Source: a virus
Length of the DNA stretch: 33,420 bases
Reading direction: 5' to 3' (one strand)
IMG/VR virus record: IMGVR_UViG_3300028859_000042
Numbering within the stretch: position 1 is the first letter of the stretch; every line of letters starts with the position of its first letter. A program made the translations under genes and the position numbers. Shown here one piece after another: positions 1-33,420 of the stretch. The notes beneath the pieces were generated by a model, which searched no databases, had not been told where the DNA came from, and saw only the letters and a program-made list of their open reading frames with translations.

Positions 1-114
1 AAAAGATCAAATCAGATAGATATGGATAAAGTCAATACAATTCTATTGGATAATATATCTATTAAATTCATTGAAAATTATATAAGAAAAAGAAAACTTA
101 ATGAACTAAAATGA
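1..114 (+). CDS. 3' end of a small tail-family protein (window-truncated); ends ...IENYIRKRKLNELK*
   Basis: In-frame from nt 1 to the TGA at 112-114, which overlaps the next ATG as ATGA. The C-terminal basic tail motif is shared with more than 50 ORFs here. Confidence 0.45.
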   Translation, partial: KRSNQIDMDKVNTILLDNISIKFIENYIRKRKLNELK

Positions 115-377
115 GATTAATAACCAAATTTAACACTTTACAAGAATCGTATCATAATTTACAAATTCAATTAGCGAAATATGAGATTGAAAATTCTGAA
201 TTGCGTAGATTGAATAAAGAATTAATAGTATCTACTAATAATACAAAAATCGGTTATGAACATTTGAGAGATAAAATTATAAATAATCCAGAAACTATAT
301 TATATCACATAAAATTATCTAAAATTGAAAATTATTTACGTAAAGTTAAACTTAAACGATTAAATTTTAATAAATAA
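111..377 (+). CDS. small hypothetical protein, C-terminal tail IENYLRKVKLKRLNF
   Basis: 88-aa ORF with the shared Y-x-RK-x-KL tail motif. Confidence 0.5.
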   Translation: MRLITKFNTLQESYHNLQIQLAKYEIENSELRRLNKELIVSTNNTKIGYEHLRDKIINNPETILYHIKLSKIENYLRKVKLKRLNFNK

Positions 378-380
378 ATT

Positions 381-602
381 ATGAATATAAATATTGATGA
401 AGAATATCAAAAATTAGAAAATGATTTTAAAGAATTACAAGATAATTTTAAAAAACTTAATAATTATACTAATTATTTACAAAATTCATATGACAAATTA
501 AAAGATTATTTATTAAATACTGAATTAGTTTTAAATGATATTGATTTTAAAGTTATTGAGTTATATGTGAGTAAAACTAAACTTAAAAAATTAAGTAAAT
601 AA
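381..602 (+). CDS. small hypothetical protein, tail ...YVSKTKLKKLSK
   Basis: 73-aa ORF, tightly packed, with the shared tail motif. Confidence 0.5.
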   Translation: MNINIDEEYQKLENDFKELQDNFKKLNNYTNYLQNSYDKLKDYLLNTELVLNDIDFKVIELYVSKTKLKKLSK

Positions 603-605
603 AAT

Positions 606-950
606 ATGGATAACATAATAATATTATCACTATTTATTATAATATCATGTATATTATCATACATATTATTATATATAATGTTTGATTATGAATTTAAATT
701 TAATGATATTATTATTCTTTTTAATAAAATAAAAATAATAAGATCCTCTGAATATAAATCAAATATTAAAATTAAAGATTTAGCAATAAGTGACAAATTA
801 GATAAATATAGTTTAAAAGATATTGAAACCATATTAAATTATGATAATTTATATAAATCAGATCCTGATATTAAATTTATAATATTAGATTATGAGAAAA
901 AAGATATTGAGAAATATATTAGAAAAAAGAAACTTCAAAAAATAAAATAA
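606..950 (+). CDS. family A: N-terminal TM helix + C-terminal KYIRKKKLQKIK
   Basis: 114 aa. Hydrophobic N-terminus IIILSLFIIISCILSYILLYIMF. The tail is identical to the next two tandem paralogs. Confidence 0.6.
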   Translation: MDNIIILSLFIIISCILSYILLYIMFDYEFKFNDIIILFNKIKIIRSSEYKSNIKIKDLAISDKLDKYSLKDIETILNYDNLYKSDPDIKFIILDYEKKDIEKYIRKKKLQKIK

Positions 951-979
951 TTATTACGATAAAAAGTAAATAAAATATT

Positions 980-1333
980 ATGGATATAATCAGAACAATT
1001 TGTATTGGAATAGTTTTATGTTTAGTATTAATAATGTTAATATTAATAGTAAAAATTATTATTTATATAATATTTGATATTGATATTAGTTTGAATAATA
1101 TTTTTGATTTATATAAAAAACAAAAATTAAAAAGAACACAAGAGTATATATCAGCAATTAAGAATTATGAATTAACTATTAGTTATATATTAGATAAATA
1201 TAATTCAAAAGATCTAGAATCAGTTTTAATTTATTATAAGTTAGATGATAAAATTAAAAATATATTATTGCAATTTGATATGAAAGATGTTGAAATATAT
1301 CTAAGAAAAAAGAAACTTCAAAAAATAAAATAA
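980..1333 (+). CDS. family A paralog (TM + ...IYLRKKKLQKIK)
   Basis: 117 aa. Tandem paralog with a conserved TM N-terminus and tail. Confidence 0.6.
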   Translation: MDIIRTICIGIVLCLVLIMLILIVKIIIYIIFDIDISLNNIFDLYKKQKLKRTQEYISAIKNYELTISYILDKYNSKDLESVLIYYKLDDKIKNILLQFDMKDVEIYLRKKKLQKIK

Positions 1334-1339
1334 AAAAAC

Positions 1340-1672
1340 ATGACAATTTATATCATTTTATTATTTATTGGTTTATATTTATTAATGTTGGTATTTTGGG
1401 ATAATATATGGGATTTATTTTTAAAAATTAAACGTAATATAGTTAATTTTTATGCGAATAGAAAAAAATTAAGATCAACAGAATATAAAAAATATATTAA
1501 GCATATAGAATTGATTATAAGTGATAATTTAGATAATTTTAAAATAAATGATATTGAATTAATTCTAAAATTTAAAAAACTGGATAATAAAATAAGAAAT
1601 GTAATCGTTGATTATGAAATATCAGATATTGAAAAATATCTAAGAAAAAAGAAACTTCAAAAAATAAAATAA
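1340..1672 (+). CDS. family A paralog (TM + ...KYLRKKKLQKIK)
   Basis: 110 aa. Third tandem copy with an identical 12-aa C-terminus. Confidence 0.6.
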   Translation: MTIYIILLFIGLYLLMLVFWDNIWDLFLKIKRNIVNFYANRKKLRSTEYKKYIKHIELIISDNLDNFKINDIELILKFKKLDNKIRNVIVDYEISDIEKYLRKKKLQKIK

Positions 1673-1674
1673 AT

Positions 1675-31367: not shown

Positions 31368-31460
31368 TAATCAACAAATTACGGGAAGATATTATATATT
31401 TATATTATATATCATGATCTTGCATCTTTTTTATAATACATTTAATATTAGTGAATTACA

Positions 31461-31784
31461 ATGGTAGAATTTAAATTTAAAATTAGTGATGAAGCATTTA
31501 ATTTATTGATGTACATTAAAGAGCATAAACAAGCAGAATATCGTGATTATGAATTTGAAAATATAGATAAATTTATAAAATCTAATAATGAATTTATTAC
31601 AGTTGAACAATTTAAACATAGAAATTGTAATGGAACTTATTATTTAATCGACTTGAGATACATAATTTAGTTTGTAGTAATAATTTTGCATGGCATCCTA
31701 CATTTATATTAACTGAAATAGGTAAAAAAATGTTAGAAAATAATTGTAGAAGAATTAAATTAGAAAATTTAAATAAAATATAAA
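31461..31784 (+). pseudogene. frameshifted paralog of ORF 31997..32341
   Basis: ORF 31461..31670 ends ...CNGTYYLIDLRYII*. In the +2 frame it continues as NLVCSNNFAWHPTFILTEIGKKMLENNCRRIKLENLNKI*. This part is collinear with the paralog's ...CDGTLYLIPELIKYSLVDKYF...KKILVSVIRKEKLKKLEKL. A 1-nt indel near 31655 explains the shift. Confidence 0.5.
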
Positions 31785-31787
31785 AAA

Positions 31788-32009
31788 ATGTTTAAACATG
31801 GTGATGTAGTAATTGCATTAGAAACATATGATAATTTAATTGTAATAAATAATTCTTATATTATTGAACGTACTGGATATGTGAAAAATAGAAAAAAATA
31901 TTATGTAATATTACAGTATCCGCCTGGTTTTTATATAGAAGAAGAAAAATTTAAATTAGATATAAAATATCAAAGAATAGAAAAATTGAAAAAAATATGC
32001 AAAATATAA
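31788..32009 (+). CDS. family B-like (MFKHGDVVIALE...IKYQRIEKLKKICKI)
   Basis: 73 aa. Confidence 0.55.
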   Translation: MFKHGDVVIALETYDNLIVINNSYIIERTGYVKNRKKYYVILQYPPGFYIEEEKFKLDIKYQRIEKLKKICKI

Positions 32010-32341
32010 TAAATAGCAGAAATATTATTAATAATATTAGTCATGATGCTCATAAATTATTAATTTATATTTATGAGAATGGTAGTGCTGAATATAAAGA
32101 TCCACAATATCAATCTATCTCTGATTTTATAGGCAATTCATTATATTTGAATCTTGTTGAAGAATTTAAAATAAGAAATTGTGACGGTACACTTTATTTA
32201 ATACCAGAGTTAATAAAATATTCATTAGTTGATAAATATTTTTCAGAATATACTGATAAATATATATTATCTGATTTTGGTAAAAAAATACTTGTTAGCG
32301 TTATTAGAAAAGAAAAATTAAAAAAATTAGAAAAATTATAA
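31997..32341 (+). CDS. tail-family protein (...VIRKEKLKKLEKL)
   Basis: 114 aa, intact paralog of the frameshifted 31461 gene. Confidence 0.55.
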   Translation: MQNIINSRNIINNISHDAHKLLIYIYENGSAEYKDPQYQSISDFIGNSLYLNLVEEFKIRNCDGTLYLIPELIKYSLVDKYFSEYTDKYILSDFGKKILVSVIRKEKLKKLEKL

Positions 32342-32346
32342 AAAAT

Positions 32347-32763
32347 ATGCAAAAAATAGTAATAGTAAATAGTAATAATGGTTGTACTTTTTCATTATCA
32401 ACAAAAGTTATACGTAGATATTTCGAACTTTCAAATTTGGGTAAACCATATTTTTATATCAGAGATTATAGTTATTTAAATATCACTAAATATAAAAAAA
32501 TTGAAGATGCTGATGATTATTTTTATACTTCATTTAATGATTTAGGAAAAGAATTAACAAATGAAAATAACATTTTTGATAAAGAAAATTATTTTGATCA
32601 AATGGAAATTTTAAGAGATGATGTAAATTTAGTTAAAGCAGTGGAAGAAATAAAACCTGACGAAATAAAAATTGTTGAAATTCCAGATGATGTTGAATGG
32701 TATATTAGAGAAGAAGATGATGGACATGAATCAATAGAAGAAACACATAGATCTTGGTTTTAA
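32347..32763 (+). CDS. hypothetical acidic protein
   Basis: 138-aa ORF with an acidic C-terminus. Confidence 0.5.
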   Translation: MQKIVIVNSNNGCTFSLSTKVIRRYFELSNLGKPYFYIRDYSYLNITKYKKIEDADDYFYTSFNDLGKELTNENNIFDKENYFDQMEILRDDVNLVKAVEEIKPDEIKIVEIPDDVEWYIREEDDGHESIEETHRSWF

Positions 32764-32779
32764 TTAATTAAATAAATAT

Positions 32780-33247
32780 ATGAAAAAAGAGTTTTATAGT
32801 TATTCTGATGAAGAACAAAAACAAATAAAAAGAATTCAAGCATTTAGTTTGATGAAAGAAATAGAAATTATTAATTGTGATAAATTAGATGATGAAACGC
32901 ACACACAGTTAATGATATATGTTGTGTTATTTTCTAATCCTCACTTATCATATCTTAATAAATTTAATACAGAATATACTATTGTAGGCAATGAGATTAT
33001 TGAAAAAACTTATACAGTTAATAAAAAAATCGAAAAAATCGAAAAAATAAAACCTGATTATATTTTTGAAAGAAAAGAATATAAAAGAAAAACAGTAGTA
33101 GAAGGAAAGGTAGGAATTGTAAATGATTATGAAGAATATGTTAATAGTAAGAAATATTATGAATATTCAGATGATAGTTATGAAAGGAAAAATTGGAGAA
33201 CTATTGAATATAAATGGAAAAATTACATTAAAGAAATAAATATATGA
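32780..33247 (+). CDS. hypothetical protein
   Basis: 155-aa ORF. Confidence 0.5.
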   Translation: MKKEFYSYSDEEQKQIKRIQAFSLMKEIEIINCDKLDDETHTQLMIYVVLFSNPHLSYLNKFNTEYTIVGNEIIEKTYTVNKKIEKIEKIKPDYIFERKEYKRKTVVEGKVGIVNDYEEYVNSKKYYEYSDDSYERKNWRTIEYKWKNYIKEINI

Positions 33248-33420
33248 AAAAATTATTTTTATGTGCATTGTTTAGTGTATTATTTTTGTCTTGTCAAAAA
33301 TATAAAACATATGTGACAAAACCAGTTGTTTTAAGACAAATGGTTAAAACTGAAGTATCAAATAAATCAGCAAGTGGTAGTTTTTTATTGGTTTATGGGA
33401 TTTATAACTCTAAAGAAAAA
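33246..33420 (+). CDS. 5' part of a secreted/lipoprotein-like protein (runs off the window)
   Basis: ATGA overlap with the upstream gene. MKKLFLCALFSVLFLSCQKYK... is a signal peptide with the lipobox-like LFLSC. The frame stays open to the window end. Confidence 0.45.

Follow-up and report, generated by a model that had tools for sequence, protein, structure and literature searches.

A basic C-terminal tail motif, predicted to be helical, on unrelated small proteins of a huge-phage lineage

Introduction

Short terminal helices serve as cargo tags of microcompartments and encapsulins, and in both systems an address of ~10–20 amino acids (aa) is attached to unrelated proteins. Here we describe a C-terminal motif of ~12 residues, hereafter called the tail, which recurs on dozens of small proteins encoded by IMG/VR record IMGVR_UViG_3300028859_000042. 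This stretch of 33,420 nt is referred to as the window, and all positions are window positions. With encapsulin cargo, the tail shares the placement of one short C-terminal peptide on different proteins. Microcompartment cargo is recognized by a terminal amphipathic helix of ~18 aa on unrelated proteins, and a helix of this kind is predicted for the tail in two folds; moreover, a candidate shell, a major vault protein (MVP) homologue, is encoded nearby. The tail differs from both types of peptide in its basic pattern Y-x-R-K-x-K-L-x-K-L/I, in its occurrence on ~45% of the accessory open reading frames (ORFs), across ~60 head clusters, and in having some membrane proteins among its carriers. 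Pfam searches of 85 window proteins revealed neither an encapsulin (HK97-fold) shell gene nor the microcompartment shell proteins BMC-H and BMC-P, and the motif is rich in Arg/Lys instead of following the Gly/Ser/Leu-type consensus of encapsulin cargo.

Phages also use short signals to gather proteins at one assembly, as exemplified by the capsid targeting of T4 internal proteins and the scaffolding helix of P22. The P22 scaffolding protein has a basic C-terminal helical motif that binds the coat and resembles the tail in this respect, but it is a single protein and not dozens of families. The T4 capsid targeting sequence, in contrast, is N-terminal and cleaved off. The ankyrin families of poxviruses with a PRANC (F-box-like) module consist of tandem, fast-evolving paralogues with a variable head and a short, constant C-terminal module that presumably connects them to one common machine, and they share copy-number turnover and pseudogenes with the tail genes. 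The latter, however, belong to a prokaryotic virus, encode much smaller proteins with many types of head, and have no sequence relation to PRANC. SspB-type ClpX-binding tails and the positively charged C-terminal signals of type IV secretion substrates are short basic-hydrophobic tethers to one ATPase, but their motif is a different one, and here 1–10 arbitrary residues follow the tail. Small SH3-like phage proteins share the barrel of the tail-bearing family B described below, without the tail. Overall, the tail is similar to known terminal address peptides in its logic, while sequence, scale, and context are different. Literature searches revealed no earlier account of either the motif or family B.

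Results

About half of the ORFs end with a common motif

The gene set comprised 93 ORFs of at least 30 aa with ATG starts, taken from the coding-strand blocks. The loose pattern R-K-x-K-[LI]-x-x-[LI], located at most 16 residues from the C-terminus, was present in 46 of the 93 ORFs, and a wider pattern that admits the variants of family C and of a transmembrane group was present in 51. An earlier note on this DNA had claimed a shared C-terminal motif for about half of all ORFs, which is borne out by these counts. A 24-nt DNA matrix derived from the motif produced 53 matches in the window compared to 1.16 in block shuffles. All 53 matches are located on the coding strand with none in antisense orientation, and, with seven exceptions, they lie in frame 0 where an ORF ends. 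Six of these seven (5819, 7656, 18628, 18866, 23942, and 31748) reside on broken copies or remnants, while the seventh, at 13629, is out of frame within gene 13555–13884 and probably a chance match.

When the window and related contigs were taken together, the C-terminal motif occurred in 164 of 389 distinct proteins. The shuffle expectation was 0.47 for whole proteins and 1.3 when only the last 30 residues were shuffled. Internal matches in the same proteins amounted to six, with 3.2 expected. When a matrix based solely on family-B proteins from other metagenomes was applied to the 68 non-B window proteins, its best site fell at most 10 residues from the C-terminus in ~30 of them, and ~20 of these scored above the 99% shuffle level. 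In sister contigs, the tail is carried by 40–55% of the ORFs, and tail carriers have a size of 51–193 aa with a median of 82 aa. An origin of the similarity by chance, from Lys/Leu-rich C-termini in a genome with 20% GC, is practically negligible. Tail-less C-termini are likewise Lys-rich, but the low-complexity Lys/Leu bias, which the earlier note had named as its own possible refutation, is excluded because shuffles of the last 30 residues yield so few carriers. The DNA matrix and the recovery of non-B tails by a matrix trained on other genomes point in the same direction.

IMG/VR relatives of 640 and 676 kb (L023–L026; GC content of 26–27%) encode an orthologous protein of 229–237 aa that ends with L-[RQ]-R-K-[FL]-K-L-x-Q-[IL]; its gene is located close to a tail-tube gene. 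The motif therefore extends beyond the immediate lineage of the window and occurs on larger proteins, too.

The tail is predicted to form a basic amphipathic helix

The consensus of the tail is R-F-I-x-L-K-E-Y-R-K-x-K-L-x-K-[IL] in family B and [ILV]-x-x-[IL]-E-x-Y-[IL]-R-K-x-K-L-x-K-[LI] in the other families. Conserved positions are a hydrophobic residue at −6/−5, Tyr at −2/−1, Arg1, Lys4, Leu/Ile5, and Leu/Ile8. Position 1 is Arg in 96–100% of the cases, although the search pattern permitted Lys. The conservation of Lys4, by contrast, was imposed by the search pattern and is not counted as evidence. The tail is strongly basic, typically with at least four Arg/Lys per eight residues. It is trailed by 1–10 arbitrary residues before the stop codon, and the free C-terminus is therefore no part of the motif.

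To judge from their spacing (i, i+3, i+4, i+7), Arg1, Lys4, Leu5, and Leu8 would share one helical face. A heptad-like 4-3-4-3 spacing is apparent for positions −6, −2, 1, 5, and 8 in the non-B families. AlphaFold2 predicted a helix in two folds, comprising residues 68–86 of family B and residues 42–63 of family D. We thus describe the tail as a predicted short, basic, amphipathic α-helix; the conserved spacing would, by inference only, be the signature of a helix packing on another surface. A cleavage site of the T4 protease type (L-x-E) in front of the tail was considered and rejected, as it suits family B (L-K-E|Y) and not the other families.

Family B combines an SH3-like barrel with the tail

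Composition-corrected BLAST clustering assigned 20–23 proteins of the window to family B, whose genes are arranged as follows, with three arrays at the positions given in the earlier note:

5589–7650, minus strand: tandem array of nine family-B copies with the head MFKVGDKVVCID and the tail RF-I-x-L-K-E-Y-R-K-x-K-L-K-x-I (alignment A1); two copies are damaged, 5841–6029 being frameshifted just before the tail and 6043–6243 ending early
20235–20947, plus strand: array of three family-B copies with MK[IV]GDK heads
25858–27906, plus strand: tandem array of seven family-B copies, a non-B tail gene (26953–27234), and the piece 25858–26064, which forms one gene with 25721–25861 (plus strand) in sister genomes
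17166–17381, 18895–19104, 28766–28990, and 31788–32009, plus strand: single family-B copies, the last three included in alignment A1

The AlphaFold2 model of family B (mean pLDDT 81.9; block values of 93–94 across residues 61–80) contains strands at residues 7–10, 30–37, 49–52, 59–61, and 65–67, followed by the tail helix. The five strands form a barrel of ~60 aa as in SH3-like small β-barrels. The best Foldseek matches in the PDB were SH3 domains, with weak E values of 0.17–0.7, and the best structural match in BFVD (E value 1e-3) was to uncharacterized phage proteins of 60–100 aa. The SH3-like nature of family B is supported by the predicted fold, whereas the matches to experimental structures are weak. 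A PDB profile search with family B did not find anything, and the head belongs to no Pfam or PHROG family; the Pfam families SH3_15, SH3_12, and SH3_13 gave weak matches to multi-domain relatives only, without a scoring stretch.

A profile search among 1.84 billion cluster representatives identified 3142 relatives of family B, 379 of them at E ≤ 1e-10. Among the best 150 matches (clusters at 50% identity), the tail is kept in 132 of 133 single-domain proteins. Multi-domain relatives repeat the barrel and have no tail, which is therefore an add-on separable from the SH3 fold. Nevertheless, the tail is the most conserved segment of family B, and its R and K are invariant in alignment A1.

The mean pairwise identity of 29 family-B proteins is 63% in the head, 23% in the centre, and 56% in the tail, and the centre varies in length from 34 to 58 residues. 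These values agree with the hypervariable centre described in the earlier note. However, the centre retains one Tyr in 97%, one Leu in 78%, and several hydrophobic residues in ~50% of the proteins, and therefore only the loops are hypervariable. The centre would represent a folded SH3 core with variable loops.

The same tail occurs on many unrelated heads

The 185 distinct tail proteins of the window and eight related loci form ~60 BLAST head clusters. Besides family B, the window contains singletons and several small groups of tail genes, namely families A, C, and D, a transmembrane group, and pairs:

22–602, plus strand: three small soluble tail genes (22–114, 111–377, and 381–602) ending with I-E-x-Y-[ILV]-[RS]-K-x-K-L
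606–1672, plus strand: family A, consisting of three genes that encode an N-terminal transmembrane helix and end with D-I-E-K-Y-[IL]-RKKKLQKIK; hydropathy of the orthologous cluster 3.39
8105–8489, minus strand: two small soluble tail genes ending with IESYIR[KE]KKLE[NK]I
9501–9893, minus strand: 130-aa protein in which the tail-like motif occurs twice, internally as IESYIRKNKLETI and in a degenerate form at the C-terminus as YIEEYIKRINKK; may be a fusion of two tail-bearing genes
13555–14219, plus strand: family C, two genes encoding a transmembrane segment, the motif FCFLFLNKIRE, and a variant of the tail, R-Y-[IL]-K-[IL]-K-K-[LI]
14999–15574, plus strand: gp32-like protein of the single-strand-binding type (phrog_224), 191 aa, ending with ERKEKIKKLNLL
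15578–16681, plus strand: three genes with a transmembrane helix and the tail R-x-I-K-[LI]-K-K-[LIF]-K
16678–17169, plus strand: singleton of 163 aa ending with IRKYKLQQI
17366–18115, plus strand: family D, four all-α genes ending with L-R-K-E-K-L-N-K-I-CTQN (alignment A2)
21556–22270, plus strand: two further copies of family C
23317–25740, plus strand: further tail genes (23317–23742, 23974–24228, 24221–24484, 24944–25372, and 25369–25740)
31997–32341, plus strand: tail gene encoding 114 aa, with a frameshifted paralogue at 31461–31771

Strongly hydrophobic N-terminal segments were found in families A and C and in the group starting at 15578. The model of family D (pLDDT 92) places the tail inside the last helix, and no PDB fold matched it. 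Homologues of the gp32-like protein contain PF08804, and a homologue with 39% identity has kept the core of the tail. Apart from phrog_224, the tail proteins have no PHROG match, and neither a Pfam domain (85 window proteins) nor a PADLOC match was found for them. Hence, as the earlier note had proposed, one tail is attached to unrelated heads, which include the SH3-like barrel, all-α, transmembrane, and gp32-like proteins.

The constraint on the tail acts at the peptide level

Neighbouring family-B genes in the arrays overlap by 13–25 nt. The next ATG is mostly located 23–46 nt from the start of the motif and often shares the last base of the latter. The post-motif residues CSK, CLK, and CSNQEIK correspond to the MFKVG or MFKPGDK of the next gene read in another frame; they recur in cluster representatives of many metagenomes, and the overlapping-array layout is therefore general. 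The resulting junctions of 85–98 nt are 80–96% identical between copies whose centres cannot be aligned, including copies from arrays on opposite strands. Near-identical pairs such as 26205–26290 and 26671–26756 (96.5%) may derive from recent duplication or gene conversion.

The DNA conservation of the junctions claimed in the earlier note is thus real, but a DNA-level function is not needed to account for it. For the third base of the Leu5 codon, the information content amounts to 0.02 bits, and any residue is accepted at position 3 of the motif. A set of 121 tails from sister contigs makes use of all six Leu codons and encodes Arg by both AGA and CGN. Lys is encoded by AAA in 87–93% of the cases within the motif versus 90% in the background. 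The same-residue match of synonymous codons in family B lies slightly above expectation both in the tail (0.70 vs. 0.65 expected) and in the head (0.73 vs. 0.62). The array-terminal copies 18895, 20744, and 27658 have perfect tails despite a downstream spacer of 38–93 nt. Positional counterparts in the sister genomes L005 and L008 have kept the tail, while the remainder of the protein is beyond BLAST detection. Tail-less genes are as tightly packed and overlapped as tail genes.

Because the information is structured by codons, codon use follows the background, and spacer-separated tails are kept, we conclude that the constraint on the tail acts on the peptide. The DNA identity of the junctions arises largely as a side effect of residue conservation, together with an extreme codon bias, which leaves most amino acids with one dominant codon, and the overlap of start codons. 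Neither synonymous conservation beyond codon bias nor frame independence, both typical of a DNA or RNA regulatory element, was observed, and a DNA-level motif was rejected because of the evidence from frame, strand, and synonymous sites. Orphan tails do not qualify as regulatory copies either: five of six are located on frameshifted, interrupted, or stop-containing genes, and the sixth (7656–7679) is remnant-like. Fusion of array neighbours by frameshifting was dropped as unsupported; the alternative frames stop inside the motif region, as judged by eye and not systematically.

The heads of family B have codon preferences of their own. Codon 2 (Phe) is TTC in 20 of 28 cases (background 16%), and codon 5 (Gly) is GGA in 27 of 31 (background 48%). 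This bias yields AAAGTAGGAGAT, with an AGGAG-like string just after the start codon (e.g., 26482–26520).

Tail genes undergo fast turnover

At least seven copies in the window are broken (5841, 18102, 18660, 23735, 24712, 25721/25858, and 31461), and several of these are intact in sister genomes. Four of the seven are listed here together with an orphan tail:

18102–18651, plus strand: family-B copy interrupted by ~320 nt flanked by 26-nt inverted repeats; RKLKLQKL tail intact
18660–18889, plus strand: frameshifted family-B copy; RKLKLQKL tail intact
23735–23968, plus strand: family-B copy with one in-frame stop codon (not TAG); tail DYRKEKLKKL intact
31461–31771, plus strand: frameshifted paralogue of 31997–32341, intact in L005 and L008
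7656–7679, minus strand: orphan tail-like IKLKLKEI without an ORF, out of frame with the upstream transmembrane gene 7700–7870

While flanking genes are 75–92% identical to their counterparts in sister genomes (MVP 90%, NMNAT 90–92%, and LOG 82%), the family-B copies reach 30–55%, with best partners at 40–54%, and the sizes of the arrays differ. These comparisons clearly point to a fast turnover of the tail genes. The birth-and-death process postulated in the earlier note is thereby corroborated, and the broken copies at 18102, 18660, 23735, 24712, and 31461 are confirmed. In contrast, nothing in the window resembles a dedicated diversification or cassette mechanism, and the notion of a recombination-prone, diversifying cassette system was not upheld.

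The insertion in gene 18102 (18165–18484) has 26-nt inverted repeats that are 85% complementary and 268 nt apart, which is consistent with a small transposable insertion.

An MVP homologue is encoded between the tail-gene arrays

The following gene is the candidate shell gene mentioned above, and the earlier note had recognized it as MVP-like, which both the Pfam matches and the collinearity with MVP chains in the PDB confirm:

2518–4971, plus strand: MVP homologue, 817 aa (Pfam MVP_shoulder 5.5e-29, Vault_3 5.6e-9)

The protein is full-length and collinear with rat and human MVP (PDB chains) over residues 328–748. Database searches yielded 6179 matches at E ≤ 1e-10; the best 120 of them are 51–100% identical over the full length and derive from contigs of up to 531 kb. 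MVP seems to be conserved in a large clade of huge phages, although the one paper found on the subject, a 2023 preprint, described just two MVPs of phages, both of them from gut phages. In NCBI entry LR756500.1 (462 kb), the MVP orthologue adjoins a sigma-70-type gene. MVP is located between tail-gene arrays both in the window and in sister genomes. Two distant MVP-bearing huge phages, L027 and L029 (MVP 52% and 74% identical), have at most one tail ORF within 20 kb around MVP. The adjacency of MVP and tail genes is therefore lineage-specific and not general.

The window derives from a putative huge tailed phage

The window is very AT-rich (GC content ~20%) and consists of three strand blocks, plus up to 5303, minus from 5393 to 13418, and plus thereafter. 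Genes are tightly packed with frequent ATGA overlaps. Pfam matches were obtained for five of the 85 window proteins, namely MVP and the products of the following genes:

11421–12878, minus strand: TnpB-type transposase
20986–21510, plus strand: LOG/SLOG protein
28983–29534, plus strand: NMNAT-like nucleotidyltransferase
30345–31367, plus strand: RNA ligase, also matched in PHROG (3e-74)

The only Rfam match in the window was the following gene:

23113–23184: tRNA with the anticodon CTA, which reads TAG

Proteins identical to those of the window were found on metagenome contigs of 222 and 346 kb. Where independent assemblies overlap with the window, the identity is 100% for three of them and 97.8–99.7% for a fourth. 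PHROG matches of window proteins include the RNA ligase, the gp32-like single-strand-binding protein, and others, and sister contigs of the window are present in IMG/VR. One tail-rich relative, which leads to the relatives of 640–676 kb, has matches to tail-tube and baseplate-hub proteins. For this exact genome, neither a capsid nor a terminase gene was seen. The two attributes of huge (jumbo) tailed phages, a size above 200 kb and phage hallmark genes, were both encountered. Because of the gene overlaps, the PHROG matches, the gp32-like protein, the suppressor tRNA, and the sister IMG/VR contigs with tail genes, the sequence data point to a huge tailed bacteriophage rather than to a eukaryotic virus. 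A giant eukaryotic virus with an embedded early promoter of the Mimivirus type was rejected, as the promoter motif AAAATTGA occurs only 9 + 4 times and off the junctions.

A Shine-Dalgarno-like motif (GGAG, GAGG, or AGGA in the 20 nt preceding ATG) is absent from all 92 genes, whose leaders are A-rich throughout. Initiation of translation apparently does not depend on Shine-Dalgarno pairing, which hints at the type of host, possibly a Bacteroidota-like one.

A PTH2-like gene (GGVQGAHAS motif) directly precedes the CTA tRNA (region 22764–23184) and is split by an in-frame TAG at 22896–22898, which is also present in L005 and L008. This arrangement suggests that TAG suppression may be programmed, as in stop-codon-recoded phages. 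Read-through of TAG does not alter the gene picture elsewhere: Treating TAG as a sense codon mends the PTH2-like gene only and otherwise adds 3–51 meaningless residues.

The non-coding stretch 28208–28658 (~450 nt) contains both ends of the TnpB element in inverted orientation (84% identical to 12905–12990 and 86% to 11418–11538) and includes the TnpB C-terminus in decayed form. The stretch has the appearance of a non-autonomous miniature derived from the TnpB element (11418–12990). In L008, the RNA ligase gene (positions 12810–14846 of L008) is split into ORFs of 121 and 235 aa, which are 86% and 78% identical to the window gene. Between the halves lies an ORF of 304 aa, whose N-terminus resembles a GIY-YIG homing endonuclease, as judged by eye only.

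Discussion

The tail is a real motif that is selected as protein, predicted to be helical, and present on unrelated folds across the phage lineage. From its conserved helical face we infer, with a probability of roughly 0.55, that it is a common docking or assembly helix. The face formed by Arg1, Lys4, Leu5, and Leu8 would then constitute a shared docking or assembly surface, which would link dozens of otherwise unrelated small proteins with one shared partner. This could be a scaffold of the phage or of the host, or the proteins might tether one another. The carriers would be small accessory proteins composed of a variable head and a constant C-terminal helix. Their genes would multiply by tandem duplication, with the next ATG within or just after the tail codons, the heads would diverge fast, above all in the loops of family B, and copies would often be lost.

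Several points weigh against this interpretation. The transmembrane helices of some carriers are a poorer fit to a tag for soluble cargo. At the DNA level, Ile8 is encoded by ATA in 72–91% of the cases versus a background of ~45%, and Leu5 codons of the CTN type are overrepresented in the window (54% vs. 23%). The junction pairs with 96% identity over 86 nt imply that overlapping-start constraints or gene conversion contribute to the conservation. Moreover, the ORF calls were mechanical, and paralogues are non-independent observations. The residual nucleotide biases (ATA, CTN, TTC, and GGA) are plausibly due to overlapping start codons and shared ancestry.

Instead of docking to a separate partner, the tails might bind each other as short coiled-coil-like helices, forming homo- or hetero-oligomers that would provide multivalency or recruit soluble tail proteins to the membrane. 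The 4-3-4-3 spacing in the non-B families, the high-confidence helix prediction in two folds, and the sharing of one tail by transmembrane and soluble families are in line with such an arrangement. We nevertheless consider it rather unlikely, as a self-binding helix would cover only ~2.5 heptads with Arg at a core position, and a helix of such basicity would repel itself unless counter-charged. The same positive charge would suit non-specific electrostatic anchoring to an anionic membrane or to nucleic acid, for instance to phage DNA for co-packaging, and one carrier is the gp32-like protein of the DNA-binding type. Furthermore, an SH3-like barrel followed by a C-terminal helix is reminiscent of small chromatin proteins such as Sso7d. 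The strictness of Arg1 and of Leu/Ile at positions 5 and 8, however, points to a specific interface, and the tail keeps a fixed position relative to the C-terminus with internal copies almost absent; an anchor of this kind is thus unlikely. A role of the conserved stretch in DNA or RNA, as a leader, a coupling or re-initiation signal, a promoter for the next gene, or a recombination linker, would explain why the next ATG is mostly so close to the motif, why codon 8 favours ATA, and why the junctions are the best-conserved DNA of the arrays. The lack of Shine-Dalgarno motifs in front of genes with A-rich leaders and the persistence of tail DNA on broken genes would fit as well. Yet synonymous sites in the motif are as free as the genome background, variable columns obey the codon structure, and every out-of-frame copy upstream of a gene traces to a broken gene or remnant. 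Array-terminal genes with distant neighbours retain the tail in three genomes, tail-less genes are packed and overlapped alike, and the rare AAAATTGA is not found at junctions. We therefore regard a function at this level as very unlikely.

A more far-reaching variant of docking is that the tail acts as a universal address peptide, which would load a fast-evolving library of small binders into or onto one phage-built compartment or machine. Obvious candidates for the compartment are the MVP vault-like shell and the capsid. As a variant of the same idea, a library of adaptors would deliver host proteins to one degradation or sequestration machine. We rate this possibility as an improbable one. 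Loading of cargo specifically into a vault-like MVP shell, an option raised in the earlier note, would agree with the full-length MVP homologue in the same genome, its position between the tail-gene arrays here and in sister genomes, and its high conservation (90% to sister genomes and 51–75% over the full length in many huge-phage contigs). It would also conform with the use of short terminal helices as tags in other protein compartments. On the other hand, L027 and L029 have hardly any tail ORFs around MVP, MVP homologues are far more widespread than the tail-rich regions seen, and several tail families are membrane proteins. Furthermore, known vault cargo docks through the INT domain of ~160 aa and not through a helix of 12 aa. 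Taken together, we consider a vault-loading function doubtful and distinctly unlikely.

Huge phages encode hundreds of small genes without an assigned function. Here, a single motif is present on a large share of the accessory ORFs and is better conserved than the domains to which it is attached. The tail thus offers one experimental handle on a large share of the uncharacterized genes of this phage, and, if it is indeed a common docking helix, its partner could bring order into the functions of dozens of families simultaneously. The analysis also defines a large uncharacterized family of SH3-like mini-proteins (3142 cluster representatives) and illustrates that tightly overlapped tandem arrays can mimic conservation at the DNA level. 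If a compartment turned out to be its partner, the tail would, in addition, provide a small targeting tag of natural origin. Should the tail prove to be a universal address peptide, it would form part of a cargo system in a prokaryotic virus, in which a peptide addresses hundreds of clients.

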